Notes under the pieces: model-generated
Databases searched by the model: none
The model's input: only the letters and a program-made list of their open reading frames with translations
Told to the model about the DNA's origin: nothing
DNA from: an uncultured Holophagales bacterium
GTDB taxonomy: Bacteria; Acidobacteriota; Thermoanaerobaculia; Multivoradales; UBA5704
Length of the DNA stretch: 64,000 nt
Direction of reading: 5' to 3'
NCBI GenBank assembly: GCA_963842525.1
Contig: CAWJGT010000019.1
Location: 470,191 to 534,190 of the forward strand
Part shown: one piece after another, positions 20,001-62,500 of the stretch
Numbering within the stretch: the first letter of the stretch is position 1
Layout of the letters: each line of letters begins with the position of its first letter
Position numbers and translations under genes: made by a program

Positions 20001-23000
20001 TCGAGCTCGGCGGACATTCACTTCTCGGCACCCAGCTCGTTAATTTGGCGCGCGAGGTGCTGGGCGCGGACCTGCCGCTGGAGGCGCTCTTCGCGACGCC
20101 CACCGTGGCCGGCATGGCCGCGGCCGTCGCGGCGGCTCGCACCGGCTCGGCCGGCCAGGCGCCGCAGCTCGTACCGGTCGGGCGCAGTGAGCGGAAGGGT
20201 GACCTGCCGCTCTCCTTCGCGCAGTCGCGGATGTGGTTCCTGCACCAGCTTGCCCCGGGCTCGCCGGTCTACAACATCCCCTTTGCCGTCCGGCTGGCCG
20301 GCGCGCTCGACCCGGCGGCCCTGACCGCCGCGGTGCGGGAGGTCGTGCGCCGGCACGAGGCCCTGCGCACCACCTTCCACGACGTGGGAGGCCGCCCTGC
20401 GCAGGCGATTGCGCCGCCGGAGGCTGCCGTGTCGCAGGTCGTGCCGGTGATCGACCTCGGGGCGCTCCCCGCCGGAGCGCGCGAGGCCGAGCTGCGGCGG
20501 CTCGGCGCCGAGAGCGCCGGGCTCCCCTTCGACCTGGCGCGCGGGCCGCTGCTCCGGCTCGGGCTCGTCCGCCTGGAGGGAAGGGACCACGCCCTGCTGC
20601 TCAACATGCATCACATCATCTCGGACGGCTGGTCGATGGGCGTCTTCGTCGGCGAGCTGGCGGCGCTCTACGAGGATCTGCGCTCCGGCCGGCCACCTTC
20701 CCTGCCCGCGCTGCCGATCCAGTACGCCGACTTCGCGGACTGGCAGAGCCGCTGGCTCTCCGGCGAGGTCCTGGAACGCCATCTGGCCTGGTGGCGCGGG
20801 CGGCTGGAGGGGAAGCCCGCGACGACCGAGCTGCCGTTCGACCGGCCCCGGAGCGAGGCCGGCGCCGCCCTGCGCGCCGTGGCCGGCAAGCGCCGCCTCG
20901 TCGTGCCCGCCGGGCTGACCTCGGCGCTGCGCGCCCTCGCCGAGCGCGAAGGGGTGACGCCGTACATCGTCCTCCTCGCGGCGTTCGACGCCGTGCTCGC
21001 CCGGTATGGACGGCAGGACGACATCTCGGTCGGGACGCCGACCGCCAACCGCACCCGCGCCGAGGTCGCTGGGCTGATCGGCTTCTTCGTCAACACCCTG
21101 GTGCTGCGGGTCGATCTTGCGGGCGATCCGACCTTCCGCGAGCTGGTCGGCCGCGCGGGGGAGGCGGCCCTCGGCGCCTTCGCGCACCAGGACCTCCCCT
21201 TCGAGAAGCTGGTCGAGGAGCTGCACCCCGAGCGCGCGCTGACGGTCACCCCCCTGTTCCAGGTGATGTTCTCCTACCAGAACGCGCCGCTGCCGCGGAT
21301 CGAGCTGCCGGGCCTGACCCTCTCCGGCGTCGAGTCCGACACGGCGACCGCGATGTTCGACCTCACCCTGACGACCGGGGAAATCGGGGCCGGCCCCGAC
21401 GCGGGCGGCCTGCGGCTGACCCTCGAATACGCGAGCGCGCTGTTCGAGGCCGCGACCGCGGAGCGCATGCTCGGTCACTTCGCGCACCTGCTCGCCGCGG
21501 CGGTGGCCGAGCCCGGCCGGCGCCTCTCCGCCCTCCCGCTCTGCTCCGAGGCCGAGCTCTTCCAGCTCCTGGCCGAATGGAACGACACGGAGGCGGACGC
21601 GCCGGATGTCCTCCTGGCCCACCAGCTCGTGGCCGCCCGGGCCGCGGCCGACCCGGAGGCCCTCGCCGTGGCGGGTGGCGGCGAGCGCCTGAGCTATGGA
21701 GAGCTGGATGCGCGGGCCGGCCGGCTGGCATGCCACCTGCGTGAGCTGGGGATCGGGCGGGAGGCCGCTGTCACGGTCTGTCTCGAGCGCTCTCCCGCCT
21801 TGTTGGTGGCCATGCTTGCCGTCCTGAAGACAGGCGGCGCCTACCTGCCGCTCGACCCGGCCTATCCGCCGGAGCGGCTCGCCGGCATCCTGGCCGAGGC
21901 CGCGGCGCCGCTCGTCCTCACCCGCGAAGGGCTGCGCGATCGCCTGCCTGTGGAAGTGTCCGGCGCCCGGGTGCTCGCCCTGGACTCTCTTGATCTTCCC
22001 CCCTCTCCCGGTGGATCGGGAGTGCGGATGGGAGAGGGGGGCCAGGGGGGTGACGGCCTCGCCTACGTCATCTACACCTCGGGCTCGACCGGCGTGCCCA
22101 AGGGGATCGAGGTGACGCACGGCTCGCTGCGCAACCTGATCACCTGGCACCACGGCGTCTACGGAATCCGTCCCGGCGACCGGGCGGCGCTGATCGCCGG
22201 TCCGGGGTTCGACGCCTCGGTCATGGAGATCTGGCCGCTCCTCGCGGCCGGAGCGAGCATTCACGTGCCGGACGACGAGACGCGGATCGCGCCCCGGCGG
22301 CTCCTCGACTGGCTCGTGCGCGAGCGGATCACCCTCTGTTTCCTGCCGACGCCGCTGGCCGAGCTGGTGCTGCGCGAGGAGATGCCGGCTGGCCTGGCGC
22401 TGCGGGCGCTGTTCACCGGCGGCGACAAGCTGATGCGCGGGCCGCGGCCGGGCCTGCCGTTCCCGGTCTATGACCACTACGGGCCGGCCGAATGCACGGT
22501 GGTGACCACCTGGACACCCGCCCCGCCGGACCCGGCCGCGCCCTCGATCGGAAGGCCGATCCGCAACGACCGCGTCTACCTGCTGGACCGCGACCTGGCG
22601 CCCGTCCCGCTCGGCGCGCCGGGCGAGCTGTTCTGCGGCGGCGGCGGCCTCGCCCGCGGCTACCGCCGGCGGCCCGACCTGACCGCCGAACGGTTCGTCC
22701 CCGACCCGTTCGCGCCGGGCGGGCGACTCTATCGCACGGGCGACCTCGCCCGCTTCCGGCCGGACGGCATGCTGGAGTTCCTCGGCCGCCTCGACGACCA
22801 GATCAAGGTCCGCGGCTTCCGCCTCGAGCTGGGCGAGGTGGAGGCGGCGATCACCCGCCATCCGGGCGTTGCGGCCTGCGCGGTGGTCGCCCGCCGGGAT
22901 GACCGCGGCGATGTGAGGCTGGCGGCCTACGTGGTCCCCGAAGCGGCGCTGGAAGAGCCCCCGATCCAACTAACCGGCTCCGATCTGCGCCGCGCCCTGC

Positions 23001-23479
23001 GCGCCCGCCTGCCCGAGCACATGGTGCCGGCGGTCGTTGTGCTGCTGGATGCCCTGCCGCTCACCCCGAACGGCAAGATCGACCGCCGGGCCCTGCCCGA
23101 GCCGCCCGCCGCCCAGGCCGCCGGCGCCGGCGGGCACGTCCCGCCGCGGACCGCGGTCGAGGAGGAGCTGGCCCGCATCTGGGCCGGGCTGCTGGCGCTG
23201 CCGTTCGACCGCGTGGGGGTGAACGACAACTTCTTCGACCTGGGCGGTCATTCGCTGCTGGCCACCCAGTGCGTCGCCCAGGTGCGGGAGCGCCTGGGTG
23301 CGGAGATCCAGCTCCAGAGCCTGTTCGGCAATGCGACTCTTGGTGAAATCGCCGACGCCATCGTCGAGGCCGAGCTGCGGCAGGTGGACCAGGACTCGCT
23401 GCGCGAGATACTCGCCGACTTCCAGGGGCTGGACGAGGAGGCGCTGCAGGCCCTGCTGGCGGGAGAGGAGCCGCGTTGA
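17060..23479 (+). CDS. Hybrid PKS-NRPS KS-AT-ACP-C-A-T
   Basis: KS triad QTGCSS / EGHGSGT / NIGHCD. AT GYSLGE and HAFHS (malonyl type). [20 protein letters not shown] code about DAMFFGHVVK (Leu-like). No KR/DH/ER. Confidence 0.95.
21998..22053. repeat. Half copy of the CCCTCTCCC..GGGAGAGGG palindromic element, in-frame
   Basis: ccccctctccc...gggagtgcggatgggagaggggggccaggggggtga just before LAYVIYTSG. Confidence 0.85.
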
Positions 23480-26400
23480 GCGAACGGCCGGGACCCGCAG
23501 TCGCCATCGAGGAGGCGCTCGCCGGGCTCTCGCGGGAGGAGAAGGCCCTGCTCTTCGAACGGCTGCGCAAGCGGGAGAAGCCCGGCGGGCGGGACTCCGC
23601 GATCCCGCGCCGCCGGCCGGGCGTGGGGCCCCTTCCTCTCTCCTTCGCGCAGGAGCGCCTCTGGTTCCTCGACCGGCTGCAGCCCGGCGACCTCTACAAC
23701 GTTCCCTACGCGCTCTCGATCCGCGGCAACCTGGAGCCGGCCGCGCTGGCCGCCGCTCTCGGCGGGGTCGTGCGGCGCCACGAGGTGCTGCGCACCACCT
23801 TCGGCGAGCGCGACGGCCAGCCGGTGCAGGTCATTGCCCCGCCCGGCCCCTGGCGGCTGCCGCTCGTCGACCTCGCCGGGCTCCCCGCGGCGCAGCTCGA
23901 CGAGGAGCTGGCACGGCTCGCGGCCTGGGAGGCGCGGCGGCCGTTCGACCTCGCGGCCGGCCCCCTGCTGCGCACCACTCTTGTGCGTACCGCCGCGGCC
24001 GAGCACACGCTGCTGCTCGTCCTGCACCACATCGTCGCCGACGCCTGGTCCATGACGGTGCTGGTGCACGAGACCGCGGAGCTGTACCGCGCCGCGTCAA
24101 TGGGGCAGGCCCCGATGCTTCCCGAGCTGCCGATCCAGTACGCGGACTTCGCGCTCTGGCAGCGCTCCTGGCTGCAGGGAGAGGTGCTGGAGCGCCAGTT
24201 GGCGTATTGGCGGAGCCGCCTCGCGGACGCCCCGGCGGCGCTCGACCTGCCCTTCGACCGGCCGCGGCCGGCCGTGCCGAGCTTCCGCGGCGCCGCGCGG
24301 ACGATCGCCCTGCCGCCCGCCCTTGCGGCCGGCCTGCGCCAGCTCGCGCGGGACGAGCGCCTGACCCTGTTCATGGCCCTGCTCGCGCCGCTCCAGGGCC
24401 TGCTCGCGCGGCTCGCTGGCGTCGACGACGTCGTGGTCGGCACGACCGTGACCGGCCGCGACCGCCGCGAGCTCCAGGGGCTGATCGGCTTCTTCATCAA
24501 CACGCTGGCCCTGCGCACCGACCTCTCCGGAGACCCGGACGGCCGCGAGCTGCTGGGCCGGGCGCGCCAGACCACCCTGGACGCGTTCAGCCATCAGGAC
24601 CTGCCGTTCGAGAAGGTGGTCGGCGAGCTGAGCCTGCCGCGCGATCCCTACCGGCCGCCGCTGCTCCGGGTGCTTCTGCAGCTCCTGGCCCATCCCGAGG
24701 GCGGCCTGGACATCCCCGGGCTGACGCTCGCGCCCCACGGCCTCGACCGCGAGACGGTCAAGCTCGACCTGATCCTGAACGTCCACGACTACCCGGGCGG
24801 CGTGCTGACGGAGTGGCTCTACGACACCGACCTGTTCGACGCCTCCACGGTGGCACGCCTGGCCGGCAGCTTCCTCACCCTGCTCGAAGGCTGGGTCGAG
24901 GACCCCGCGCGACGGCTCTCCGACCTGCCGCTGCTGACCGCGGCACAACGCCACCAGCTTCTCGTGGAATGGAACCCGGGTCCGGCAGGGGAGCCCGCCT
25001 GGGGTTGCCGGGGCTGCCTGCACCGGCTCTTCGCCCACCAGGCGGAGCGGACGCCGGATGCGCCGGCCGTCTCGATGGGAGGTGGACGGAGGACGTACCG
25101 GGAGCTGGACGAGTCCTCCAACCGCCTCGCCCGGCACCTGCTCGCCGCCGGGATGCGGCCGGGCGATCGTGTCGCCCTTTTCCTCGACCGCTCGCTGGAC
25201 ATGGTGGAGGCGATCATGGCCGTCCTCAAGGCGGGCGCCGCCTACCTGCCGCTCGATCCGGCCTACCCTCGCGAGCGGATCGCCTTCGCCCTGGAGGACA
25301 GCGGAGCCGCGCTCGTCCTCACCGTCGCGGCGCGCTCCCCGGAGTTGCCGGAGATCCCAGAAAACACCGCGCGGGTGCTCGTCCTCGACCGCGAGCGCGA
25401 CGCCATCGCCCACCGCAGCAGCGGGCCGGTCGAGGCCGCGGCCGATCCGGAGCTGCCGGCCTACGTCATCTACACCTCCGGCTCGACCGGCCGCCCCAAG
25501 GGGGTGGTGGTGCCGCACGGCAACGTCACCCGGCTCTTCACCGCCACCGCGCCCTGGTTCGGCTTCGGCCCGCAGGACGTTTGGACCCTCTTCCACTCCT
25601 ATGCCTTCGACTTCTCGGTCTGGGAGATCTGGGGGGCGCTCCTCCATGGCGGCCGGCTGGTCGTGGTGCCGTACTGGGAGAGCCGCGCGCCCGAGGCCTT
25701 CTACAAGCTGCTGCGCGATGAGCGGGTGACGGTGCTGAATCAAACGCCATCGGCTTTCCGGCAGCTTTTGTGGGCGGAGGAGGCGGTGGGACCTCACCCC
25801 CTGTCCCCCTCTCCCATCTCCCACCCACCCTATCCCCGGGAGAGGGGGGACGTTGCTCAGGCGATTCCAGCGAGCCCGGGCACGGGTGCCCTGGATGCGT
25901 CCCCCCTCTCCCGGCGGGGGGTGGAAGGGAGATGGGAGAAGGGGCTAGGGGGTGAGGACACGCTCTCTCTGCGCTTCGTGATCTTCGGCGGCGAGGCGCT
26001 GGAGCCGGCGATGCTCCGGCCCTGGTTCGACCGCCATGGCGACGAACGGCCACGGTTGGTCAATATGTACGGCATCACCGAGACCACGGTCCACGTCACG
26101 TACCGGCCGCTCGGGCGGGAGGACAGGAGGAGCGTCGTGGGCCGGCCGATCCCCGACCTGACGCTCCACGTGCTCGACCGCAGCCTCCAGCCGCAGCCGC
26201 TCGGGGTGGCAGGGGAGATCTGCGTCGGCGGGGAAGGGCTCGCCCACGGCTACCTGGGGCGGCCGGCGCTGGCCGCCGAGCGCTTCGTCCCCGATCCCTT
26301 CGGGGTTCTCCGGGGCGAAGCGGGCGCGCGGCTCTACCGTTCGGGCGACCTGGCGCGGCGACTGGTGGACGGCGACCTGGAATACCTGGGCCGCGTCGAC

Positions 26401-29400
26401 CACCAGGTCAAGATCCGCGGCTTCCGCATCGAGCTGGGGGAGATCGAGGCGGCGCTGACGCGCCATCCGGCCGTGGGCGAGGCCGTGGTCCTGGCGCGCC
26501 GGGATGCCGGCCACGGCGAGGATCGCCTGGTGGCCTACGTGACCGCCGGGCCGCAGCCCTCTCCCGCCCTGCCGGAGCTGCGGGCCTTCCTCGCCGGGAG
26601 CCTCCCCGACTACATGCTCCCCGCGGCCCTGGTGGTCCTCGACCGCCTGCCGCTGACGGCCAACGGCAAGGTCGACCGCCGTGCCCTGCCCGCTCCGGAG
26701 GCCGTGTCCACGGCCAGTCGCGAGCAGGTGCCGCCGCGCGACGCGTTGGGGCACGCCCTGGCCGGTCTCGTCCGCGAGGTCCTGGCGATCCCGGCCGAGC
26801 AGGAGACCGGCGTTTTCGACGACTTCTTCGAGCTGGGCGGGACATCGATCACAGGTGCCATCTTCATCAACCGGCTCCAGGAGACGTTGGAGGAGATCGT
26901 CCAGGTGGTGGTGATCTTCGACTATCCCACGGTCGATGCCCTGGCCGGCTATGTCCGGCACGAGCACCCGAAGGCCGTGGCGCGGCTCTGGCCTGCGGCT
27001 CTGGAGCCGGTCGACGAGACGAAGCCGGCCCGGTTCCGTGGCCTCGTCCGCCCCGTCGCCCATATCGCCGAGGATTGGTCCGCCATCCAGCCGGCGGGCT
27101 GGCGCGAGGGCGAGCCCATCCCCCTGTCGTCCGCCCAGGAGAGGCTGTGGTTCCTCGACCGGCTCGCCCCCGGCTCGCCGGTCTACAACATCTCTACCCC
27201 CCTGCGGCTGAGCGGGCCCTTGCGAGTCCCGGCCGTGGCCGCGAGCTTGCGCGAGATCCTGCGCCGTCACATGGCATTGCGCACGCGCTTCGTGGCGCTC
27301 GGCGGCGTGCCGCACCAGGTCGTGGACCCCGTTCCGGAAGACGTCCTCCCGGTGGTCGACCTCGCGGGGCTGCCGGAACCGCTCCGCGAGGGCGAGGCCC
27401 AGCGTCTCGCGGCGGCCGACGCGGTCCGGCCGTTCGATCTGGCGCGCGGGCCGATGCTACGCACCCTCCTGCTGCGGCTCGGCCCAGAGGAACACGTCTC
27501 CCTTGTGGCAATGCACCACATCGCCTCGGACGGCTGGTCCATGGGCGTGTTGATCCGCGAGCTGGCGGTTCTCTATGGCGCGTTGGCGCAGGGCCGGCCT
27601 TCGTCCCTGCCGGAGCCGGCCATCCAGTACGCCGACTTCGCCGTCTGGCAGCGGCGGTGGCTCCAGGGCGAACGGCTGGAGCGCGAGATCGCCTACTGGC
27701 GGGAGGCGCTGGCCGGCGCGCCGGTGCTCGACCTGCCGGTCGACCGGCCGCGACCGCCGGTGCAGACCTTCCGCGGCGCCCAGTTGGGATTCCACGTGCC
27801 GGCCGAGGTGGCCGCCGCGTTCGCCGCGGCCGGCCGGAGGGAGCGGGCGAGCCTGTTCATGACGCTGCTGGCGGGCTTCGCCGTTCTCCTCTCCCGGTAC
27901 GCGGGCCAGGACGACGTCTCCGTGGGCTCGCCGGTCGCCAACCGCACGCGGAGCGAGATCGAGGGGCTGATCGGGTTCTTCGTCAACACCCTGGTGCTGC
28001 GCACGGACCTCTCCGGCGATCCCTCGTTCGGCGAGCTCCTGGGCCGGGTGCAGCGTACGGCGGTGGGGGCCTTCGCCCACCAGGAGGTGCCCTTCGAGAA
28101 GATCGTGGAGGAGCTGCAACCGAAGCGCGACCTGTCGCGCTCGCCGCTCTTCCAGGTGATGCTCACGCTCCAGAACGCCTCGTCCGAGAAGCTGGAGCTG
28201 CCGGACCTGACCCTGAGCCCTCTCGAGGGCGGCGGGACCACGGTGGCGAAGTTCGACCTGACGCTCGCCCTCTTCGAGGCACCGGACGGCCTGGCCGGGA
28301 GCTTCGAATACAACACCGACCTCTTCGACGCCGCGACGATCGGCCGGCTCGCACGGTGCTTCCAAACGCTGCTGGCCGCGGCCGCGGTGTCGCCGGAGCC
28401 GGTTTCGGAGCTGCCGCTGCTGAGCGATGCGGAACGGCGCCAGCTCCTGGAGCGGGGCAGGGCGGAATCGTCCGGAGGCATCGTCTGCCTCCACGAACGC
28501 TTTGCGCAGCAGGCGCGGGAGGCGCCGGCGGCCCCGGCGATCACCTTCGCGGGTGCGACCCTGAGCTATGCCGAGCTGAATCGGCGGGCGAACCGGCTGG
28601 CTCATGCGCTACGTGCGCGCGGGATCGGCCCCGGCGACCTCGTGGGCCTCTCCCTGGAGCGCTCGCTCGACCTGGTGGTCGCGATCCTGGGCGTGCTCAA
28701 GTCCGGAGCTGCCTATGTGCCGATCGATCCGGACTCCCCGGCCGAAAGGACCGCCTGGATCCTGGCCGACAGCCGGGTCGCGCTGCTGCTGACCGACAGC
28801 ACGTTGGCCGAGGCGGATAAGACTGCTGATCGGGACGACGACCAGGTGCCGTGGTCCGCTCCGGAGGATCCGGCCTACGTCATCTACACCTCGGGCTCGA
28901 CCGGGAAGCCCAAGGGCGTCGTGGTCACCCACGCCAACGTGGCGCGCCTGTTCGCATCGACCGAGGGCTGGTTCGGCTTTGGTCCTGAGGATGTCTGGAC
29001 GCTGTTCCACTCCACGGCCTTCGACTTCTCGGTCTGGGAGATCTGGGGCGCTCTGCTCTACGGCGGGCGCCTGGTGGTGGTGCCGTACTGGGTCAGCCGT
29101 TCGCCGCAGGACTTCTACCGCCTGCTGGTGACGGAGCGGGTGACGGTGCTCAACCAGACGCCGTCGGCCTTCCGCCAGCTCCTCTGGGCGGAGGAGTCGG
29201 TGCTCGACGGCGGCCCCCCCGACCTGGCTTTGCGCTGCGTCATCTTCGGCGGCGAGGCCCTGGAGCTGTCGAGCCTGGCCCCCTGGTTCGCCCGCCATGG
29301 AGACCACCGTCCCGAGCTGGTCAACATGTACGGCATCACCGAGACCACGGTCCACGTCACCTGGCGTCCGCTGCGGCAGGAAGACACGGCACGAGGAAGC

Positions 29401-32400
29401 GTCGTGGGCCGGCCGATCCCGGACCTGGCGCTGCACGTCCTGGATCCCAAGCTGGAGCCCCAGCCGCTCGGGGTGCCAGGGGAGATCTGCGTCGGCGGCG
29501 GAGGGCTCGCCCTGGGCTACCTGAACCGGCCGGACCTGACGGCGGAGCGCTTCGTCCCCGATCCCTTCGGGTCTCCTGGAACGCGCCTGTACCGCTCGGG
29601 CGACCTGGCGCGGCGGCTGACGGATGATTTGGAATACCTGGGGCGCATCGACCAGCAGGTCAAGATCCGCGGCTTCCGCATCGAGCTGGGCGAGATCGAG
29701 GCGGCGCTGTCGAGCCATCCCGCTGTACGCGAGGCGGTCGTGGTCGCCCGTGAAGGGCAGCTCGTCGCCTACGTGGTGGCCGCTCCCGATCAGGAGGAGC
29801 CCACGCTCGAAGATCTGCGGTCGGCGCTTACAGCCCATCTGCCGGACTACATGCTGCCCTCGGCGTTCGTGCTGCTGCCGGCCCTGCCGCTGACCGCCCA
29901 TGGCAAGGTGGACCGGCGGGCCCTGCCGGAGCCGGAGTGGAGACCGGCGCAACGGCAGTCGGTCGCGCCGCGCACGGACCTCGAAAGGCTGGTGGCCCAC
30001 CTGTTCGCGGAGACGCTGGGGCTCGACCGGGTGGGAGTGCACGAGGACTTCTTCGAGCTCGGCGGCAGCTCGATCACCGGTGCCATCCTGATCAACCGGC
30101 TCCAGGAGGCGACCGGCGAGGCCATTCCGGTGGTGGCGATCTTCGAGACGCCGACCGTCGCCGGCCTGGCCGAGCGCCTGTCTCCCTCCGCGGTGCGCCT
30201 TGGCGATCAGGCGCCGCCGCTCGTCCCGGTGCCGCGTGAGCGCGACCTTCCGCTCTCCTTCGCCCAGCAGCGGCTCTGGTTCCTCGACCGGATGGAACCG
30301 GGGAGCCCGGCCTACAACCTGCCCAACGCCGTGCGCATCCGCGGCCGGCTCGACGTGCCGGCGCTCGGCCGCACGCTCCAGGAGTTGGTGCGTCGCCACG
30401 AGACGCTACGCACCTCCTTCGCGCTGCGTAATCGCCAGCCGGTGCAGGTCATTGCGCCGGATGTCCTGGCGGGGGTTTTCGCTCTGCCGGTCGTCGACCT
30501 GGCCGCGCTCCCGGAGGAGGCCCGCGAAGCCGCACTGCCCGCCGAAGCCGCGGCCGAGGCGCTCCGGCCGTTCGACCTGAGCCGGGCACCGCTGCTGCGC
30601 GCCACGCTGCTGCGGCTGGGGGATGACGACCACGCCCTGCTCCTCACCATGCACCACATCGTCTCGGACGCCTGGTCGATGGGGGTCCTCGTCACCGAGG
30701 TGACGCGGCTCTACGGCGCCTTCGTCCGTGGCGAGCCCTCGCCGCTCCCCGCGCTGCCGGTCCAGTACGCGGATTTCGCGGTCTGGCAGCGCCAGTGGCT
30801 CCAGGGCGACGTGCTGGCGGCCCAGCTTGCGTACTGGCGGCAGCAGCTCGCCGGCGCGCCGGTGCTCCAGCTCCCCACTGACCGGCCGCGTCCCGCGGTG
30901 CAGACCTGGCGCGGCGCCGATTTCTCCTTCCTGTTGCCGGCTCCCCTCATCCAGTCGCTGACCGCTCTCGGTCATCGGCACGGGCGCCACCGGGCCACGC
31001 TGTTCATGACGCTCCTGGCGGGCGCCCAGCTCCTGCTCTCCCGGTACAGCGGCCAGGACGACGTCACCGTGGGCTCGACGATCGCCAACCGTACGCGGCC
31101 CGAGCTGGAGGGCCTGATCGGGTTCTTCGTCAATACGCTTGCCCTGCGGCTGGATTTGACGGGGGACCCGTCGTTCGCGGACCTCCTGGACCGGGCGCGG
31201 GAGGTGACCGTCGGCGCCTATGCCCACCAGGACCTGCCGTTCGAGCAGCTCGTGGCCGAGATCCAGCCGGAACGGGACCTCGGACGCTCGCCGCTCTTCC
31301 AGGTCCTCGTCCAGCTCCAGAACACCCCGGCCGGCACCGCGGAGCCGGCGCCCGGCCTGGTCCTGGAGCCTGTCCAGAAGCCGGGCCAGACCGCGAAGTT
31401 CGACCTGGTCCTGAACCTGGCCGAGACCGCCGAGGGCCTCTGGGGCCAGTGGAAGTACAACCGCGACCTGTTCGAGGAGGCGACGATCGCCCGCCTGTCG
31501 AGCGATCTGGAGACCCTGCTCGCCGCGGTGGCGGCGGAGCCGGAGCGCCGGATCGCGGAGCTGCCGCTGCTGCATGGCGAGGAACGGCGCCAGCTCCTGC
31601 CGCAGGCACCGGCCGCCCCGGTGGCCGCCTTCACGGGTGCGACCCTGGGCTACGCCGAGCTGGTCGAGCCGCGCAACGAGGTCGAGCGGTTCGTGGCCGG
31701 CCTCTTCGCCGAGGCCCTGGGGCTCGACCGGGTGGGAGTCCACGAGGACTTCTTCGCGCTCGGTGGCAATTCGATCACCGGCGCCATCCTGATCAACCAG
31801 CTCCAGGAGACCCTCGGAGAGATCGTCCAGGTGGTGGTGATCTTCGACGCCCCGACAGTCGCCGAGCTGGCCGACTACCTGGCGCGCGAGCATCCGCAGG
31901 CGGCGGAACGGCTCTGGGGCCTGGCCGCCGTGGAGCAACGAGGAGCCGGGCGGGTCGGCGATGCGCAGATCGCGGCGCTCCGGGCGCTGTTGGGTGGCGG
32001 CGCCCCTCTCCCGCTCGGGGTGGGGGATGGTGGACGCGCGGGGGAGGGGTCGGGGGAGGGGGCCCTCTTCGTCCTGGCGCCGCCGCGCTCGGGCACCACA
32101 CTCCTCCGCGTCATGCTCGGCGGCCATCCGGCTCTCTTCGCGCCGCCGGAGCTGGAGCTCCTGTCCTTCAACACCCTGGCCGAGCGCCGGGCCGCCTTCC
32201 CGGGCCGCGACAGCTTCTGGCTGGAGGGGCTCGTCCGGGCCGTTATGGAGATCCGCGGCTGCGGCGCCGAGGAGGCCGCGGCCCTGATGGAGGACCTGGA
32301 ACGGGAGGGGCTGACGACCGCCGAGCTCTACGGCCGGCTCCAGTCCTGGCTCGGCGGGCGGATGCTGGTGGACAAGACGCCGTCCTACGCCCTGGATCCC

Positions 32401-35400
32401 GCGGTCCTGCGACGGGCCGAGGAGGTCTTCGACGGGCCGCGCTACATCCATCTGATGCGCCACCCGCTCGGCATGATCCACTCGTTCGAGGAGGCCAAGC
32501 TCGACCAGATCTTCTTCCGCTACGAGCACTCGTTCTCCCGCCGCGAGCTGGCCGAGCTGATCTGGACGGTGAGCCACCAGAACATCGTCGATCTCCTCCA
32601 GGACGTGCCTGCCGAGCGGCAGCACTGGGTCCACTTCGAGGAGCTGGTGCGCGAGCCGGAGCGCGTGCTGCGCGGGATCTGCGCCTTCCTGGGGATCGAC
32701 TACCACCCCGCCATGGCGCAGCCCTACGAGGAAGGCTCCGCGCGGATGACCGACGGCCTGCACGCCGCGTCCCGGATGCTCGGCGACGTCAAGTTTCACC
32801 AGCACCAGGGCGTCGACGCCCGCGCCGCCGAGCGCTGGCGGGAGGAGCTCGGCGAGGAGGCCCTGGGCGAGCCGTCGCGGCAGATGGCGGCGCGGCTCGG
32901 GTATTCCCTGGAGACAGGCGGGAAGGAGCTGGGGCAGATCGCGTCCTCCGGCTGGCACGAGGGCGCTCCGCTCTCCTTCGCCCAGGAGCGGCTCTGGTTC
33001 CTCAGCCGGCTGGACCCCGATTCCGCGACCTACAACATCGCCGCCGCCCTGCGCCTCCGCGGCCGGCTCGACACGCCGGCCCTGGAGGGGGCTCTGCGGC
33101 AGATCCTGCGGCGCCATGCCGTGCTGCGGACGACCTTCGACGCCGTGGACGGCCGCGCGCGCCAGAACGTCGGACCCGTGGAGGGGTTGGACCTGCCGCT
33201 CGTCGATCTCTCCGCCCTGCCGGCCGCCCTGCGCGAGCCCGAGCTGCGGCGCCTGATCGACGAGGCGGCCCAGCTCTCCTTCGATCTGGAGCGCGACCTC
33301 CTGCTCCGTCCGCTCCTCCTGCGCCTGGGCCAGGACGAGCACGGCGCCGTCCTGGTGATGCACCACATCGCCGCGGACGGCTGGTCCATGGGTGTGCTGA
33401 TCCGCGAGCTGGCCGCTCTCTACAGGGCTTTCACCCAGGGCCAGCCGTCGCCGCTGCCGGACCTGCCGATCCAGTATGCGGACTTCGCGCGCTGGCAGCG
33501 CGAGTGGTTGAAGGATGAGCGGCTCGACCGCGAGCTCGCCTTCTGGCGCGACGCGCTCGCCGAGGCGCCCGTTCTCCAGCTCCCCACCGACCGGCCGCGG
33601 CCCCCGGTGCAGACCTTCCGTGGAGGCAGGCGTTTCCTCCTGATGCCGGCACGGATCGGCGAGCCTCTGACCGCCGTGGGCCAAGGGGAGGGCGCGAGCC
33701 AGTTCATGACTCTGCTGGCGGGCTTCGCCGCCCTCCTCGCCCGCTACGCCGGGCAGGATGACGTCTCGATCGGCACGCCCATCGCCGGCCGCACCCGGGC
33801 TGAAATTGAAGGGCTGATCGGGTTCTTCGTCAACACGTTGGTCCTGCGCACGGACCTGTCCGGTGATCCGCCGTTCCGCACCCTCCTCAGACGGGTACGG
33901 AGCGCCGCGGTCGCGGCCTTCGCCCACCAGGACCTCCCGTTCGAGAAGGTGGTCGAGGAGCTGCAGCCGGAGCGGGACCTGTCGCGCACGCCCCTCTTCC
34001 AGGTGATGTTCACCCTGCAGAACGCCCATTCCGAGACCCTGAAGCTGCCAGGGCTGACCCTGGAGCCCCTCGGCGCCGACACCGGGGCGGCCAAGTTCGA
34101 CCTGACGCTGGCGATGGCCCAGGGTCCGGCGGGCCTCTTCGCAACGTTCGACTACAACCTCGACCTGTTCGACGGCCCGACGATCGACCGCATGGCCGAG
34201 CACCTCGCCATGCTCCTGGAGGGAGTGGTCGCGGAGCCCGACCGCGCAGTCTCCGAGCTGCCGCTTCTGACCGCGGGCGAACAACACCAGCTCCTCGCCG
34301 AATGGCCGGGCACCGCTCCCGCGGGCTGTTCCGTCCCTGTCGATCAGCTCTTCCGCGAGCAGGCCGCGCGGACCCCGGGCGCCGTGGCGCTTCTGTTCGG
34401 CGACGAGCGGATCACCTATGCCGAGCTGGACGAAAGGTCGGACCGGCTGGCCCGGGAGCTGGCGGCGGCCGGCGTGGGCCCCGAGGTCCGGGTCGCCGTC
34501 GCCCTGGAGCGCTCGCCCGCTCTGATTGAGGCGTTTTTCGGCGTGCTCAAGGCGGGCGGGGTGTACGTGCCGATCGATCCGTCCTATCCGGCGGAGCGGA
34601 TCGAGTTGATGCTGGAGGATTCCGGCGCGGCGGTGGTGCTGCGGGACCCTCACCCCCCTAGCCCCCCTCTCCCATCCGCACTCCCGATCCCCCTGGAGAG
34701 GGGGGAACAAAGCAGAAGCAGTCTTGAGCTAGAGAAGCTTTTCTCCCCTCTCCCGGGGGAAGGGAGTGCGGATGGGAGAGGGGCCGGGGGTGAGGGCCCC
34801 GCCTACGTCATCTACACCTCCGGTTCCACCGGCCGACCCAAGGGCGTCGTCGCCCTCCACCGCGGCCTCGCGACCTTCAGCCTCGCTATGGCCGACGCAC
34901 TGGGCCTCGGTCCCGGCGACCGCTTCCTGCAGTTCGCGTCGCCTTCCTTTGACGCCTCGGCCGTGCAGATCTTCCCAACGCTGCTGAGCGGGGCCACGCT
35001 CGTCCTTCACCCCGATCCGACCGCGCTGTCTCCGGCCGAGCTGTTGGTCTTCTGCGCCGACCAGGGGGTGACCGTGCTCGACCTGCCGGGGGCTCTCTGG
35101 CGCCAGACGGTGCAGGAGATGGCGTCCGGCGCCGCGCCACATCCACCCGTCCGGGCCTGGTTGACGGGCGGCGAGAGCCTGTCCCTCGAAGCCCTGCGGC
35201 AGTGGGCCGGGACGGTGGACGGTGAGAGCCTGTTCCTCAGCTCCTACGGCCCTACCGAGGCCACGATCACCACGACCGTCTTCACCCTGCCCGCGCGGGA
35301 GGTCGCCTCCCTTCCTGCCTTCGGCGCTCCCGTGGGCCGGCCGCTCGGCGGTGCCGAGGTCTACCTGCTCGACGCGGCCCTGCAGCCGGTTCCGGCGGGC

Positions 35401-38400
35401 GTGGCGGGCGGCCTGTACATCGGGGGCTCCGGGCTCGCCCGCGGCTATCTCGACCGGCCCGAGCTGACCGCGGCGGCGTTCGTTCCCCACCCCCTGGCCG
35501 GTGGAGAGCCCGGAGCACGCCTCTACCGTACCGGCGACCTCGCGCGGTGGCGGCCGGACGGCTCGCTGGAGTTCCTCGGCCGGGCCGACCAGCAGGTCAA
35601 GATTCGCGGCTTCCGGGTGGAGCCGGGCGAGATCGAGGCGATCCTGGCGCGCCACCCCGCAGTCGCGGACGTCGCCGTCGGCGTGCACGAGGACCGGGGT
35701 GATCGCAACGATCAGCGCCTGGTCGCCTGGGTGGTGCCCGCGGAAGCCGGGGATGCCCTCGTGCCGAAGCTGCGCGCGTTCCTCCGTGAGCGGCTGCCCG
35801 AGCACATGGTCCCCTCGGACTTCGTGCCCCTCGCCGCGATGCCGCTCACCCCGGGTGGCAAGGTGGACCGCCGCGCCCTGCCGGCGCCGGACCGCTCGCG
35901 GCCGGAGGACGGCGCCGGCTTCGTTGCGCCGCGCGGTGCAGTGGAGGAGACCCTCGCCGCCGTCTGGTCCCGCCTGCTCGGGGTCGAGCGGGTGGGGGCG
36001 GACGACGACTTCTTCGAGCTGGGCGGCCATTCGCTCCTGGCCACCCAGCTCGTCTCGCGCCTCCGCGAGGTCTTCGGCGTCGAGCTCCCCCTGCGCCAGG
36101 TCTTCGAGGCGTCTCGCCTCGCCCGGCTGGCCGCGGTCGTCGAGGACGCCCGCCGCGACCAGCGGGGCATGGCGGTCCCGCCGCTCCAGCCTCTTCCCCG
36201 GACCGAGGACGAGCCCCTGCCCCTCTCCTTCGCCCAGGAGCGCCTCTGGTTCCTCGATCAGCTCCAACCGGGGCGGCCGACCTACAACATGCCCACCGCC
36301 GTGCGGCTCGGCGGACCGCTGGACGCGATCGCCCTCGCCGCTGCTCTCGGCGAGGTCCGGCGGCGGCACGAGGCGCTGCGTACCCGCTTCCCGGTGCAGA
36401 GCGGTGCGCCGGCCCAGGTTATAGCTGAGCCCGACCCGTTCTCCCTGCCCCGGGTCGACCTCTCCCGGCTGGAGGGACCGGTCCGCGAGGCCGAGGCCAC
36501 CCGCCTGGCCGTGGCAGAGTCCAGCCGGCCGTTCGACCTCGCCGCCGGACCGCTCCTGCGCGCCACCCTGGTGCGGCTGGCCGAGCGCGAGCACGTGCTC
36601 CTGATCACCCTGCACCACATCGTCTCGGACGGCTGGTCCATGGGTATCCTCATCGAGGAGCTGGGCCGGTCCTACCACGCCTTCGCAGCCGGTACCGGGC
36701 CTGACCTGCCCGCGCTGCCCGTCCAGTACGCCGACCATGCCCGCTGGCAACGCGGCTGGCTGCGCGGCGAGGCGCTCGCGGTCCAGCTCGGCTACTGGCG
36801 GGACAAGCTCGGCGGCGAGCCGGTATCCCTGGAGCTGCCTCTCGACCGGACCCGTCCGTCGGGTGACGTCTTCCGCGGCGCCCGGCAGACCGTCCATGTC
36901 CCTCTGGCCGCCCTGAAAGCCCTGGAGGCCCTCGGCCGGCGCGAGGAGGCCACCCCTTTCATGGCCCTGGTGGCCGCCTTCGAGGCGCTGCTCCACCGCG
37001 TCACCGGACAGACCGACATCTCGGTGGGCACGCCGATCGCCGGCCGCACCCGGAGCGAGACCGAAGGGCTGATCGGCCTGTTCCTCAACACCCTCGTCTT
37101 GCGGGACGATTTGTCGAGAGATCCGACATTCCGCGAGCTGATCGGCCGTGTCCGGCGCACGGCCCTGGACGCCTACTCGCACCAGGACCTGCCGTTCGAG
37201 AAGATCGTCGAGGAGCTGCAACCGCAGCGCAGCTTCGGCCAGACGCCGTTCTTCCAGGCCATGTTCGTCCTGCAGAACACGCCGGCCGGCGCACTGGAGG
37301 CCGGGGAGCTGACCCTGGCGCCGGTCCCGGCCTATAACGAGACAGCGCGGTTCGATCTCACGATGTCCGTCTCCCAGACCCCCGCCGGCCTCTACGGCTG
37401 GCTGGAGCACAAGCCCGACCTTCTCCACGCCACCACGGTCCAGCGCTGGATCGAGGGCTTCCGGCGCATTGTCGAAGCCGTCGCCGCCGATCCCGACCTG
37501 CGGCTCTCCGAGCTGCCCCTCCTGTCGGCCGCCGAACGCCATCAGGTCGTGAGCGAGTGGAACGATAGCGAAGCCCCAAGTCGGGACGTCTGTCTGCACG
37601 ACCTGTTCGCGGAGCAGGTCGCGCGTACGCCTGGGGCCGTGGCCGTGATGGGCCTCGACGTGGATCTCACCTATGCGGAGCTGGCAGCCCGGGCGGAGGA
37701 CCTGGCCGGCCGTCTGCGTGCCCAGGGCATCAGGCCCGGTGACCGGGTCGCGATCCTGATGCAGCCCTCGCCGGACCGTGTCGCGGCGGTGCTCGCCGTG
37801 CTTCAGGCCGGCGCGGCCTATGTCCCCCTGGACCCGGCCTATCCGCAGGAGCGGCTGGACTTCATGGTCCAGGATGCGGGTGCGTCGGTCGTGCTGACGG
37901 ACCCTCACCCCCGGCCCCTCTCCCATCCGCACTCCCTCCCTCCGGGAGAGGGGAGGATTGCAGTGAGAAGGCTTCTTTCCTCCTCTCCCGGGGGATCGGG
38001 AGTGCGGATGGGAGAGGGGTCGGGGGTGAGGGCCTACGTCATCTACACCTCAGGCTCCACCGGCCAGCCCAAGGGCGTCATGATCGAGCACCGCCAGGCG
38101 GTCAACACGATCCTCGACATCAACCGCCGCTTCGGAGTGGGGGAGCGGGACCGGGTCTTCGCCATCTCGGCCCTCTCCTTCGACCTGTCGGTCTGGGACC
38201 TCTTCGGCACCCTGGCCGGCGGCGGCACGATCGTGCTGCCGCCGCCGCAGACCGAGGGGCCGGACCCGGCTGCCTGGGTGGAGCGGCTGGCGGCCTGCGG
38301 TGTCACGATCTGGAATTCGGCTCCACCTCTGCTGGAGATGCTGGTCGAGTCCGGAGCGCGGCTGCCGGCGACGTTGCGCCTGGCGATGCTCTCGGGCGAC

Positions 38401-42400: not shown

Positions 42401-43175
42401 CGGAAAGCCGGGCGATCGGATCTACCGGACCGGCGACCTGGGCCGCTACCTGCCGGACGGCGAGGTGGCCTTCGCCGGCCGCGCCGACCAGCAGGTCAAG
42501 ATCCGCGGCTTCCGGATCGAGCTGGGCGAGATCGAAGCCGTGCTCGGCCGGCTGCCCGGGGTGCGCGAATCCATCGTCCTCTTGCGCGAGGACGCGCCAG
42601 GCGGCGAGAAGCGCCTCGTCGCCTACATCGTCTCCGAGAAGGACGGGACGGTGGACGCCGCCCAACTGCGCGACGCGCTGCGCACACAGGTCCCGGCCTA
42701 CATGGTCCCGGCCGCCTTCGTGCTCCTGGAGCGGCTGCCGCTGACCCCCAACGGCAAGGTGGACCGCCGCGCCCTGGCCCGCATCGCGCCCGAGCGGCCG
42801 GACGGCGAAGGGGTGGAGGGCTTCGTCGAGCCGGCGAGCGACCTCGAACGGGTCATCGCCGGCATCTGGTGCGAGGTGCTCGGCCTGGAGCGGGTGGGAG
42901 CACAGCAGAATTTCTTCGATCTCGGAGGCCACTCCCTCCTCCTGGTCCGCCTGCACGCCCGCCTCCAGGAGGCCCTCGGGAGGGAGCTGACCCTGGTCGA
43001 CCTCTTCAACTATCCAAACGTCCGCGCCCTGGCCGGGTTCTTGAACCGGGAAGCGGGCCGCGGTACTGGAGGTCCTGGCGACGCCGGGCTCGCCCAGTCG
43101 AAGGACCGCGCCCAGAAGCAGATCGAAGCCGCCCGCCGCCAGAAAGAGCTGGCCCGCGCCCGCCGAGGCACGTGA
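39483..43175 (+). CDS. Monomodular NRPS C-A-T with a Lys2/alpha-aminoadipate-type A domain; last gene of the operon
   Basis: LSGLAHDPLQRDIFTPL and NLYGSTETQRAV. Code DPRHLVLRAK. Arg-rich C-terminal tail, no TE. Confidence 0.92.
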   Translation: MSLQELARAAGLDLDDLDLLAEMLREEGVQVEEETGIRRVPAAEAPLSFSQERLWFLDRLTPGTATYNMPGPLRLRGPLDTRVLARCFAEIARRHESLRTRFAIREGTPVQVIDPPGAWTIPGIDLTALPAPRRQAEAERLANEESGWPFQLDRGPLLRTLLLRLDDGEGGGEHVLLLTMHHIISDGWSMGVLFRELTTLYQAFTAGEPSPLPELPVQYADFARWQRERLAGPDLETQLAYWRERLAGSPEVIDLPLDRPRPPVQSFQGEAVQVAVPRPVAESLKALGLAEGASSFMILLAAFKLLLGRWSGQEDVLAGTPIAGRARPEVEGLIGFFLNTLVLRTDLSGRPTFRELVRRVREAALGAYAHQDVPFERLLEDLQSERDLSRTPLFQVFFNMLNLPRSEVRLPSRLTLEPLAGSTVVESKFDLTVYAAEREDGFAFNLVYNADLFDRPRMEELLRQYRRVLDQVAADPDAPIDAVSLVTPAALDLLPDPAAPLGDAWHGAVHELFAARARRHPDRLAVIDGEGTWTYGDLAEAVARLASRLRADGIVSGEPVAIWAHRSAPLVWAVLGVLEAGGAFVVLDPTYPPARLADIVRLAAPRAWLEIAAAGAPPPEVEDLLMDGRESPLPLAPSPVRHPAFRPERERGNAVAAGEGESRLGGGAPLPLGEGGGGRAGEGSGEGATGLRCRLTLPGGGPERARALLSAFPEPRPSAAVGPDDLAYIAFTSGSTGLPKGILGRHGPLSHFLPWQQERFGLADSDRYSLLSGLAHDPLQRDIFTPLCTGATLCVPSVEEIATPGRLAAWMATQGITVAHLTPAMGQLLTETGGGGPSVRIPVRIPTLRWVLLVGDILTRLDVDRIQALAPAVTCVNLYGSTETQRAVGYHVVKPERARTGEHAKQILPLGQGMRDVQLLVAGRVSRVGSTPSPRLAGIGERGEIWVRSPHLARGYLHDEPLTADRFRTNPFTGKPGDRIYRTGDLGRYLPDGEVAFAGRADQQVKIRGFRIELGEIEAVLGRLPGVRESIVLLREDAPGGEKRLVAYIVSEKDGTVDAAQLRDALRTQVPAYMVPAAFVLLERLPLTPNGKVDRRALARIAPERPDGEGVEGFVEPASDLERVIAGIWCEVLGLERVGAQQNFFDLGGHSLLLVRLHARLQEALGRELTLVDLFNYPNVRALAGFLNREAGRGTGGPGDAGLAQSKDRAQKQIEAARRQKELARARRGT
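41375..41544. repeat. Divergent full palindromic element in-frame in an A domain (A2-A3 region)
   Basis: ccctctccccctggccccctctccc ... gggggaggggtcgggggagggg with internal gggagagggg / cccctctccc hairpins. Confidence 0.85.
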
Positions 43176-55830: not shown

Positions 55831-55836
55831 CTTTTC

Positions 55837-56981: not shown

Positions 56982-56987
56982 GCCGGC

Positions 56988-58296: not shown

Positions 58297-58376
58297 TCGC
58301 GTGTCTCCTTTTAGGCGCCGCCATTCTCGCACAAGCGAGGCCCGGGGCGGCGTGCCGCCCCAGGCCCGGGTAAGGC

Positions 58377-59342: not shown

Positions 59343-59581
59343 GGGAGGAGGACACCGGAGTCGCCTGCAACGACCCCGGCGTCCGCTTCACGGACGTGAG
59401 ACAGCCTGTAGTCTAACCTACCCCCCCTGGGGGGTGCAAACGCGCCTCCCAGGGGGCCTTTCCCGGGGAATTGGGAACGAGGCCTTCCCGTTAGTCCCCC
59501 CGGTTGCCGGGCGGCTGTCGAGACACCCTCCAGGCCGGATGTGGCACTTACTCTTGTGGCGGGTTTTTTGAGGAGGACACG

Positions 59582-62500
59582 ATGCCCGAGGTGCTGAACG
59601 AACGGATCTCCAAGCTGTCGCGGGAGGAGCGCGCTCTGCTCTTCCAGCGGCTGCGGGAGAAGCGCGGGAGCGAGCCTGCGGGCGGCGATCGGGGCTATCG
59701 GATCACGCCCCGTATCCGGCCGGCTTCCATTCCGCTGTCGTTTGCCCAGCAGCGGCTCTGGTTCCTGGACCAGCTCGATCCGGGCCAGTCGACCTACAAC
59801 CTGCCGGTCAGCTTCCGCATTACCGGTCCGCTGCGGCCGGCGGCCCTGGCCGCGGCGCTCCAGGCCGTCTCCGACCGCCACGAGTCGCTCCGCACCACGT
59901 TCCGGGACGAGGACGGGAAACCGGTCCAGGTGATCGCGCCCCGCCTCGCCTTCGCGCTGCCGCTGGTCGACCTGGCGGCTCTTCCTTCAGGCGTCCGGGA
60001 CGCCGAGCTCCAGCGCCTTCTGCTGGCCGACGCCAAGCGGCCGTACGACCTCGCCGTGGGGCCTCTGGTGCGCTCGACGCTGGTGCGGCTCGGCCGCGAG
60101 GACCATGCCCTGCTGATCGGCATGCACCACATCGTGAGCGACGGCTGGTCTATGGGCGTTCTGGTGAGCGAGATGACGGAGCTCTACGCCGCAGCCGCCG
60201 AAGGGAGGCCGGCCGAGCTGCGGGTACTGCCCATCCAGTACGCTGATTTCGCACTGTGGCAGCGCAAGTGGCTCCAGGGCGAGGTGGTCGAAAAGCAGCT
60301 CGGCTATTGGAAGGAGCAGCTTGCGGGCGCGCCCGAGGCGCTGCGGCTGCCGGCCGACTTCCCGCCGCCGGCCGTCCCTACGCCGGCCGGCGGCCGCAGC
60401 CGGCTCCGCGTCGGCGGCGATGTCATGGAGCCGTTGCAGGCCCTCGCCCGCGAGGAGAGAACGACGCTGTTCGTCGTCCTCCTGGCCGCCTTCGGCCTGC
60501 TCCTCTCCCGCTGGTGCGGCGAGGAGGACGTGCCGGTCGGCACGGTCGTGGCCAACCGGACCCACGCCGAGACCTCCGGCCTGATCGGTTTCTTCATCAA
60601 CACGCTGGTGCTGCGCCTCGACCTGTCGGGCGATCCCGGTTTCCGCGAGCTGCTGCGGCAGGCGCGGGGTGTGGCGCTCGGCGCCTACGCCCACCAGGAC
60701 CTCCCGTTCGAGAGGCTCCTCGAGGAGCTGCGGCCCGACCGCACCGCGCGTTCGCCTCTGTTCCAGGCGATGCTCGTGCTGCAGAACATGCCTGGGTCGC
60801 GGTTGCACGCGGCCGGTCTCCTCTTCGAGTCGCTGCCGGTCTACTCGGGGACGGCCAAGTTCGAGCTCAGCGCCACCGCGATCGAGGAACCCTGGGGCCT
60901 GCTGGTCGATCTGGAGTACAGCCGCGACCTGTTCACGGCGAGCACGATCGCGCGGATGGGGGACAGTTTTGCCGCCCTGCTCGGGGAGATCGCCGCCGAT
61001 CCGGAGCGGCGCCTGTCGGAGCTGCCCCTGCTGAGCGCTGCGGAGCGCCGCCAGATCCTCGACGAGTCGGGTGCGGAGCCGTCGGAGGCGCCGCTCGGCA
61101 CGCCGGTCCATCGCCTCTTCGAGGAGCAGGCGCGGCGGACGCCGCTACGGACCGCGCTGGTGGCGAGCGACGGGCTGGAGGTGACCTTCGCGGAGCTCAA
61201 TGCGCGGGCCAACTGCCTGGCCCGCCACCTGAGGCGCCTTCTGGGCGGGAAGCCGGAGGGCCTGCGCCCCGAGGCCCTCGTGGGGGTGGCCCTGGAGCGC
61301 TCGACCGCCCTGGTCGAGTCCTTCCTCGCAGTCCTCAAGGCGGGCGGAGCCTATGTGCCGCTCGATCCCAACTGGCCGCGCGAGCGCGTCGACGAGCTGG
61401 TGCGCGAGGCCGGCATCCCGCTGGTGATCACGGAGCGGCGCTGGCTGGAGCGCCTGCCGGAGCTGCCGGCGCCGCTCCTGCTCGACGAGGACGAGGGGAT
61501 CTGCGCGAGCCCTGTTCCCTCACCCCCGACCCCTCTCCCATCCGCACTCACACCCGCCCGGGCGAGGGGAGCCTCCACCGGGACGCTTTCTGACAGTGCA
61601 TTTTCTCCCCTCTCCCGGGGGAAGGGAGTGCGGATGGGAGAGGGGTCGGGGGTGAGGGTCCAAGGCGACGTCGGCAGCAGAATTTTCCAAACACCCTCTC
61701 AGGCGGAGACCGACCTGCCGGGTCCGGACGTCGGCCGTCTGGCCTATGCGATGTTCACTTCCGGCTCGACCGGGCGGCCCAAGACGGTGGGGATCGACCA
61801 CGACGGCATCGTGCGGCTGGTGCGGGGCGCCGACTACGCGGATTTCGGGCCGGAGGAGGTGATCCTGCAGCTCTCGGCGCCGGCTTTCGACGTCGCCACG
61901 GTCGAGATCTGGGGCGCGCTGCTCAACGGTGGCCGCCTGGTCCTCCCCCCGCCGGAGGCGCCGTCGCTCGAAGAGCTCGACGCGATTCTGGCGCGGCACG
62001 GCGTGACCATGCTCTGGCTGACCGCCGGCCTGTTCCACCGCGTGGCCGAGGGCCGGATCGAATCCCTGCGCGGTGTGCGCCAGCTCCTCGCGGGAGGCGA
62101 CGTCCTGTCGCGCGAGGCGGTGAACCGGGTGCTCGCGGAGCTGCCCGGCTGCCGGATGATCGACGGCTACGGCCCGACGGAGAACACGACCTACACCTGC
62201 TGCCACACGGTGCGGGAGCCGATCCCGCCGGGCCGGTCGGTGCCGATCGGCCGGCCGATCGCCGGCACCTGGATCTACATCGTCGACCGCTGGCTGCAGC
62301 CGGTCCCCCCGGGGGCTCCGGGCGAGCTGCTCGCCGGCGGCCCGGGGCTGGCGCGCGGCTACCTGGGCCGGCCGGACCTGACCGCCGAGAGGTTCGTGCC
62401 GAGCCCGTTCGCGGGGGAGAGCGACGCGCCGGGTGAGCGCCTCTACCGCACGGGCGACCTGGTGCGGCGGCGGCCCGGCGGGCCGGTCGAGTTCCTGGGG

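Follow-up and report, generated by a model that had tools for sequence, protein, structure and literature searches.

How did seven short palindromic repeats come to lie within the coding sequence of nonribosomal peptide synthetase (NRPS) genes, and do they serve any purpose there? The question is raised by a 64,000-nucleotide stretch of DNA from an uncultured Holophagales bacterium (G000:C19:470191-534190, hereafter the window), which belongs to a 9.95-Mb genome of 34 contigs and is filled for the most part by a cluster of NRPS and polyketide synthase (PKS) genes. A preliminary description of the window had noted the seven inserts and proposed that a family of palindromic elements repeatedly colonises adenylation (A) domains. 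We found that the repeat is real, mobile and mostly passive. As a whole, and with moderate confidence, the inserts are best explained as non-autonomous copies of a selfish, BoxC/TM-like repeat, tolerated in NRPS genes and linked to genes of the DUF559 family.

Seven inserts in open NRPS frames

The host genes, the inserts and the empty site with which one of them was compared are as follows.

17060..23479 (+): host gene, KS-AT-T-C-A-T hybrid PKS-NRPS, 2139 aa
21996..22056 (-): one unpaired BoxC-type unit within A2-A3 of the PKS-NRPS A domain (gene 17060-23479)
23476..39486 (+): host gene, NRPS, 5336 aa, with four A domains and a sulfotransferase domain; four elements inside
25787..25961 (unstranded): Thr-type A domain with a head-to-head pair in its A4-A5 region
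28330..29634 (+): paralogous Thr-type A domain; site near 29190 empty
32003..32065 (-): degenerate single unit in the linker from T domain to sulfotransferase domain; weak profile match, E = 0.095
34644..34799 (unstranded): head-to-head pair in place of nearly all of an A2-A3 linker; 29 host codons remain
37899..38035 (unstranded): head-to-head pair in place of nearly all of an A2-A3 linker; 27 host codons remain
39483..43175 (+): host gene, C-A-T module, 1230 aa
41372..41544 (unstranded): unit at 41372-41441 plus a degenerate second arm to ~41544, A2-A3 segment of gene 39483-43175
59504..62776 (+): host gene, C-A module; out of frame after A8, with no A10 motif in that frame
61514..61662 (unstranded): head-to-head pair in A2-A3 of gene 59504-62776; identical copy in a duplicated segment of contig C18

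At all seven sites the repeat was found within an open NRPS frame, as had been proposed, and five of the inserts do lie in the A2-A3 region (21998, 34647, 37902, 41375 and 61517; we keep the positions first given as names). The statement that A domains are colonised holds for six of the seven and fails for 32003, which sits in the T-to-sulfotransferase linker. Two of the inserts, 21998 and 32003, are half-units (singles) and not full palindromic elements. The paralogous A domain near 29190, which had been put forward as a site without the 25792 insert, was confirmed as empty; compared with it, ~59 codons of the 25792 pair stand in place of ~7 host codons. We take both domains to be Thr-type on the strength of their pocket motifs. 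A 23-nt arm had five matches in the window and none in 100 shuffles. When folded as RNA, three of the pairs reached z = -8 to -13, and the single unit at 21995 showed no unusual fold (z = -1.6).

A mobile repeat family across the genome

A profile scan of the whole genome, a check that the preliminary description had recommended, revealed a genome-wide family with both coding and intergenic copies. The search returned 855 units, and 882 after one iteration, compared with 1 and then 5 in the reversed genome. These 882 units form 592 elements, namely 263 head-to-head pairs, 313 singles and 16 others, with no plain tail-to-tail pair among them. Each unit of ~58-61 bp consists of a pyrimidine tail, a 10-bp stem, a loop of 18-28 nt and a purine stem, and a full element is made of two head-to-head units around a spacer of 20-120 bp. 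Among 248 pairs, 131 spacers were unique and the others included families of 35, 25, 12, 8 and 7 copies with mostly unrelated flanks; one such family is present at three different A-domain positions. Because pairs with the same spacer occupy unrelated places, these A-domain positions included, the head-to-head pair is what moves. The REP/MITE-like nature first suspected was thus borne out, in the sense of inverted-repeat pairs around a non-coding core that move as a unit. In 254 pairs no direct repeat of at least 6 bp that could represent a target-site duplication rose above shuffles, and a 4-bp direct repeat, seen in 7.9% versus 2.6%, may have its source in the palindromic ends.

Gene classes were taken from our own gene caller, which covers 74.7% of the genome, and class assignments are approximate. 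On this basis, 99 elements lie within genes, 247 in intergenic DNA and 246 at gene ends, either touching these or inside them; the 99 comprise 49 in NRPS genes, 3 in PKS genes and 47 in other genes. Edge-corrected density was 51 per Mb in NRPS genes, 9 per Mb in other genes, 29 per Mb in other genes of at least 1000 aa and 216-803 per Mb in intergenic gaps. Density in NRPS genes is 1.8-fold that in other genes of at least 1000 aa (P = 0.024), and gaps adjoining NRPS genes are not enriched (13/143 vs 383/4642, P = 0.65). Any specificity for NRPS genes must be given up, since 493 of the 592 elements lie outside gene interiors and the NRPS density is far below the intergenic one.

Forty-five non-NRPS hosts were scanned and include helicases, DnaE2, LigD, PBP1C, sulfatases and transporters, with 19 left unnamed at the cut-off used; this list resembles the hosts of intragenic REPs in the available part of PMC3733652. 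Several of these other hosts look like two genes fused via an element, and the non-NRPS count is therefore inflated. In one open frame, an element pair lies between the C-terminal part of HisF and HisIE (L167, G000:C9:302219-303325), and elements also lie where domains or genes meet in the open reading frames (ORFs) of topoisomerase III-RecQ and LigD. The repeat may create gene fusions, or sit in them.

Relationship to BoxC/TM repeats

BoxC, also known as PIT or TM(ECO), is an intrastrand-triplex repeat of Escherichia coli according to the accessible part of Holder et al. 2015 (PMC4666352), and is also catalogued in that of PMC2267715. The strict BoxC/TM consensus (9-nt stems, loop 1 of 3-6 nt, loop 2 of 3 nt) had no match in the Holophagales genome, because loop 1 is here mostly 18-28 nt; the same search in E. 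coli K-12 returned 23 matches, in agreement with the published count. With relaxed loops, the three-block BoxC pattern, a potential class II purine triplex, had 704 genome matches, and a triplex-type stem of at least 9 was found in 773 of 882 units, compared with 77 when the tail was shuffled. Short-loop forms near the published BoxC consensus occur in other genomes of the same bacterial class. The window contained no Rfam match at the gathering score. Judged by its sequence, the repeat works in the manner of BoxC and is most aptly described as a long-loop variant of the E. coli BoxC/TM repeat, and the long loop may weaken triplex formation.

DUF559/YcjD as a candidate partner gene

Partner genes were sought with the profiles PF04480 (DUF559) and PF01797 (Y1_Tnp). 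The cognate RAYT transposase suggested earlier did not emerge: none of the 19 Y1_Tnp loci had a unit within 1 kb, Y1 being the only transposase family searched for. Three of the five DUF559 loci lie between head-to-head units: the two strong genes, of which one is intact and the other frameshifted, and a decayed remnant. The two weak DUF559 hits are not bracketed by the repeat. The intact protein, encoded on contig C1 (C1:769540-769857), is 47% identical to E. coli YcjD and matches PDB 3hrl (E = 2e-20), and K-12 itself has a TM motif ~170 bp downstream of ycjD. DUF559 has been grouped with Vsr and a homing endonuclease (group 58 in the available part of PMC3424549).

The association recurs beyond this genome. 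In relatives, 15 of 26 DUF559 hits are flanked on both sides, and in other phyla a motif lies within 300 bp of 30 of 72 DUF559 loci, compared with 3 of 57 control windows. Gene and repeat agree in 27 of 31 relatives (co-occurrence 11/2/2/16) and in 121 of 150 class genomes (22/13/16/99, with the unpublished G034 dropped), kin not being independent in either count. Genome-specific arm variants flank the local DUF559 gene and, of five genomes searched, are dispersed in their own only (9 copies in G016, 7 in G013). Arm similarity is 0.87-1.0 in 13 cassettes against a median of 0.87 in plain pairs. Among eight E. coli chromosomes, those with ycjD have 23, 27 and 26 TM motifs and those without it have 1, 2, 6, 7 and 11, a split that fits the lineage-restricted ycjD of PMC12817139 as far as its available part goes. 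Of 5,426 E. coli genomes, 3,378 have ycjD.

From this association we lean towards DUF559 as the mobiliser of the repeat, although the gene could be a passenger, and several points weigh against the assignment. Forty-two of the 72 DUF559 loci of other phyla have no motif and only 14 have it on both sides; 13 class genomes carry DUF559 without the pattern and 16 the reverse; and kinship confounds every one of the co-occurrence counts. In E. coli, the split presumably follows phylogroups and is confounded by phylogeny. Descent of the plain pairs by internal deletion finds little echo in their spacers, only 12 of 248 resembling cassette sub-termini, mostly those of one decayed cassette, and Holder et al. 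report no mobility genes near TM motifs in the part available (PMC4666352).

These points could be read to mean that the repeat spreads otherwise, by a different transposase or by replication slippage and repair at hairpin or triplex DNA, and that DUF559 merely rides between copies. The loci without a motif fit this alternative, as do the motif-rich genomes without detected DUF559 (G006, G018 and the 16 class genomes) and the deletions and instability, with no partner gene, that the available part of PMC4666352 describes at TM sites. However, G006 and G018 are assemblies of 750-1000 contigs, the arm variants and the local DUF559 cassette change in step, the two arms of a cassette resemble each other more closely than those of a plain pair, and the one transposase family searched for gave no locus near a unit. 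We consider such a route rather unlikely.

The YcjD/DUF559 literature, with subscription journals mostly outside the search, yielded no substrate or role and no repeat-bounded cassettes; likewise, we found no paper linking DUF559/YcjD to BoxC within that coverage, to which the supplementary motif tables of PMC4666352 did not belong. YcjD is treated only as a putative nuclease in the available part of PMC1189080, and DUF559 and NRPS/PKS genes are among the predicted inversion targets in that of PMC9881135. No match to the DUF559 cassette was obtained in phage records. In G028, a DUF559 gene with short-loop BoxC-type arms lies within a 670-aa open frame, the whole cassette being in frame (L110, G028:C2:299014-299334).

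Accumulation in the A2-A3 linker

Within A domains, 22 of 29 inserts fall in the 59 of 510 profile positions that make up A2-A3 (P = 2e-15). A unit is present in 22 of 197 A2-A3 intervals, in frame in every case. The carriers keep a median of 47 host codons there, compared with 70 (range 49-141) in element-free intervals, and most copies therefore replace host codons instead of adding to them; at 37902, for example, the element occupies the place of ~40 linker residues in LgrA. On a tree of 221 A domains built with the linker removed, the 21 carriers required 18 parsimony changes (shuffled mean 20.3), so that most gains are independent, and three carrier pairs stem from duplications. The idea of independent landings in a tolerant hotspot has thus held up, with ~18 gains.

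The same linker also accepts other sequence. Natural inserts in 217 element-free A domains peak at the same places, and unrelated multicopy repeats are present in 13 of 175 element-free A2-A3 linkers, counting only segments with at least 29 matches outside NRPS genes. A cut-off of three matches was uninformative (control 132 vs 62 of 175), and one further BoxC-like, out-of-frame segment (C34:550277) was left out of the 13. In the window, a second, unrelated palindromic family (158 matches outside NRPS genes) lies in frame at ~12311-12387, in the A2-A3 linker of gene 10435-13773, and a short tandem repeat lies in frame at ~2305-2350, directly before A3 in the first NRPS gene.

According to the preliminary description, a genome-wide spread of copies with no enrichment in A-domain loops would reduce the case to passive tolerance. 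The spread was found, and so was an enrichment: A2-A3 occupancy is ~8%, against 1-2% expected from intergenic density, a ~150-bp window, one third of insertions in frame and 270 of 630 frames open, a roughly five-fold excess by rough arithmetic. Moreover, 19 of the 22 A2-A3 elements end 3-11 codons ahead of the A3 tyrosine, and single units in A2-A3 are polar, 9 versus 1 (P = 0.02). These three results count against passive accumulation and would suit an insertion steered by sequence or structure to the DNA just upstream of A3, a homing-like preference. The recurrence of the element-A3 junction in 8 of 31 related genomes, all five congeners among them, would suit it too, and so would the outward flanks, which are pyrimidine-biased at positions 2-4 and carry a tail-like heptamer in 18 versus 7 of 647 non-coding cases.

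We nevertheless regard steering as unlikely. The bias in the flanks is slight and could stem from the end of the element itself, and unrelated repeat families are found in the same linker. Intergenic copies are under regulatory constraint and probably deleted faster, which would lower the neutral baseline, and stepwise deletion to the first essential strand would yield the same clustering. Longer retention in coding DNA, together with such deletion, can explain both the excess and the clustering, and copies would pile up in A2-A3 because it is the widest dispensable window of the A domain and recurs ~245 times in the genome. The available part of PMC10212144 held nothing further on A2-A3 length.

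Fate of the inserts in their host genes

The A domain with the 37902 insert, at 37489-39000, was modelled with AlphaFold from an alignment of 81 sequences, a single-sequence model (pLDDT 37) having been discarded. The model has a pTM of 0.91 and matches solved A domains with TM up to 0.94; pLDDT exceeds 90 in the core and is 52-61 in the insert. In line with the earlier expectation of a surface loop, the insert is predicted to form a low-confidence loop on an intact fold.

Contig C18 holds an older paralogous NRPS stretch (G000:C18:20136-27760, similar to window 32968-40667 at 76-79% identity) in which both corresponding A2-A3 sites are likewise occupied by elements. The paralogues of the 34647 and 37902 sites carry different element versions, and the C18 relative of the 25792 domain has a different family member, inverted, at the same site. 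Inverted or different versions at paralogous sites indicate turnover, not conservation.

The 61517 insert represents one event, later duplicated, and is identical in C18. The duplication (window 53513-64000 and G000:C18:37201-47695) measures 10.5 kb at 98.4% identity and begins directly after two genes, for an integrase core and an AAA ATPase (50902-53123), which we take to be IS21-like. The C18 copy of the duplicated NRPS gene stays open for 1215 aa, whereas the window copy loses its frame after A8. Elsewhere in the window, a C-T-sulfotransferase unit without an A domain is found at ~30240-32710 within the 5336-aa NRPS. The condensation domain of ORF 4056-6971 begins at profile position 109, which suggests an upstream frameshift or an assembly indel at 3900-4056. 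Past the cluster, 43439-44533 and 45416-46499 form a 1.1-kb tandem duplication of 86% identity with a short reverse-strand ORF in each copy.

The re-editing of occupied sites in C18 could be taken to support the earlier proposal that the elements are recombination handles for A-domain swapping, extended here to subdomains. Paralogue identity also rises from ~0.65 to 0.87 near 34647, and the correlation between upstream and downstream similarity profiles is a little lower in carriers (rho 0.12 vs 0.17, P = 0.013). However, paralogue homology continues on both sides of all three compared sites, there is no step at 37902, and the step at 34647 probably reflects entry into the more conserved A core. 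A nearest-neighbour rank test for chimerism found no difference (P = 0.43). The proposal thus gains no clear support from these comparisons, and we judge it quite improbable.

Domestication, whether as hairpins or G-quadruplexes in the mRNA that set the pace of transcription or translation, or as peptides with a role, is in our view highly improbable. The pairs are very stable as folded RNA, a four-G-run pattern is present on the sense strand in six of the seven window copies, and frame is kept in all 22 carriers. Stable folding, however, follows from the inverted repeat alone, and copies in genes use all six frames equally (29, 27, 23, 21, 25 and 29, P = 0.84), with no strand bias of single units (22 vs 20). 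The carriers are scattered over the tree, and paralogues differ in orientation and version. For TM(ECO), the available part of PMC4666352 reports in vitro nuclear magnetic resonance (NMR) data more in keeping with a triplex than with a quadruplex, and no promoter or terminator activity in earlier work. Because the six frames are equal and 13 A2-A3 linkers hold unrelated repeats, the linker appears to be a tolerant sink and not a place of domestication, and the NRPS inserts are quite likely tolerated passengers. That they are an assembly artefact can practically be dismissed: the assembly does have small indels (52 gap openings in the 10.5-kb duplicate, 8 of 168 element-free A2-A3 intervals out of frame), but the element-A3 junction recurs in seven other, separately assembled genomes, the frame is kept throughout and the copies differ in sequence.

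Proposed explanation and significance

In the explanation that we favour, the DUF559 cassette, enclosed by the same head-to-head arms, would be the autonomous form of the repeat. Its nuclease may recognise the extruded hairpin or triplex and then nick or cut, and host repair would paste a copy elsewhere, often losing host bases and leaving no target duplication. Most insertions into genes would be lost, the survivors being in-frame copies in dispensable loops of large accessory genes, and those in A2-A3 would be translated as floppy Pro/Gly loops without a selected role.

A bolder reading, to which we give somewhat less than an even chance, is that DUF559/YcjD genes with BoxC-type arms constitute an undescribed class of mobile element run by a Vsr-like nuclease and not by a DDE or HUH enzyme. 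Its miniatures would insert in a cut-and-replace manner that leaves no target duplication, would favour sites immediately ahead of A3 and would go on reshaping NRPS loops. If this is true, BoxC gains its enzyme after 30 years and YcjD its function. The NRPS part of our analysis is a large, well-controlled case of known behaviour, and it shows at which positions an A domain can gain or do without 20-60 residues, up to nearly the entire A2-A3 linker; such a map is of use to those who engineer or annotate NRPS genes. Of more weight is the partner-gene link: how BoxC/TM repeats arose was still an open question in 2015, and no role is known for YcjD. With a nuclease cassette bounded by the repeat, both questions can be tested in E. 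coli K-12, where the protein has 120 residues.

Comparison with known systems

The repeat shares with BoxC/TM its three blocks (C stem, G stem and mirror G strand), its inverted pairs, its patchy copy number and its association with local deletions. It differs in a loop of 18-28 nt instead of 3-6 nt, in longer stems, in its hundreds of copies and in its place, 99 of 592 elements lying within genes here whereas all 23 K-12 copies are intergenic. With the REP/REPIN-RAYT system, as described in the available part of PMC3733652, it has in common repeat pairs around a spacer, one small bracketed gene, genome-specific variants and a preference for gaps between convergent genes (10.3% of gaps here vs 4.3% of divergent ones). 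Unlike in that system, the bracketed gene encodes a PD-(D/E)XK Vsr-like nuclease and not an HUH/Y1 transposase, and a GTAG or CGTC terminal tag is absent from the consensus and the outward base profiles. An inverted-repeat pair that moves as a unit is also typical of MITEs, from which the lack of a target-site duplication sets the repeat apart.

The analogy with Rickettsia palindromic elements drawn in the preliminary description stands for behaviour but not for sequence, which is unrelated and encodes no conserved peptide. Palindromic repeats read in frame within proteins were already known from Rickettsia and from intragenic REPs (PMC10969869 and PMC3733652, in their available parts), and the likeness extends to palindromes of up to ~150 bp, in frame in unrelated proteins and presumably in loops or linkers; in-frame insertion is seen here in 99 elements within genes and in all 22 occupied A2-A3 segments. 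In contrast to the Rickettsia elements, from which we set it apart without direct sequence comparison, our repeat uses six frames equally. It also differs from both groups in that host codons are replaced and half of the intragenic copies lie in NRPS genes. Lastly, the positions of the inserts recall the interrupted A domains, for which the available part of PMC8341866 gives a2-a3 and a8-a9 as known interruption sites, with whole methylase domains at a2-a3. The main hotspot is likewise A2-A3, and a second lies in the late A8-A10 stretch, but what is inserted here is 12-59 residues of repeat-derived peptide and not a catalytic methylase domain.

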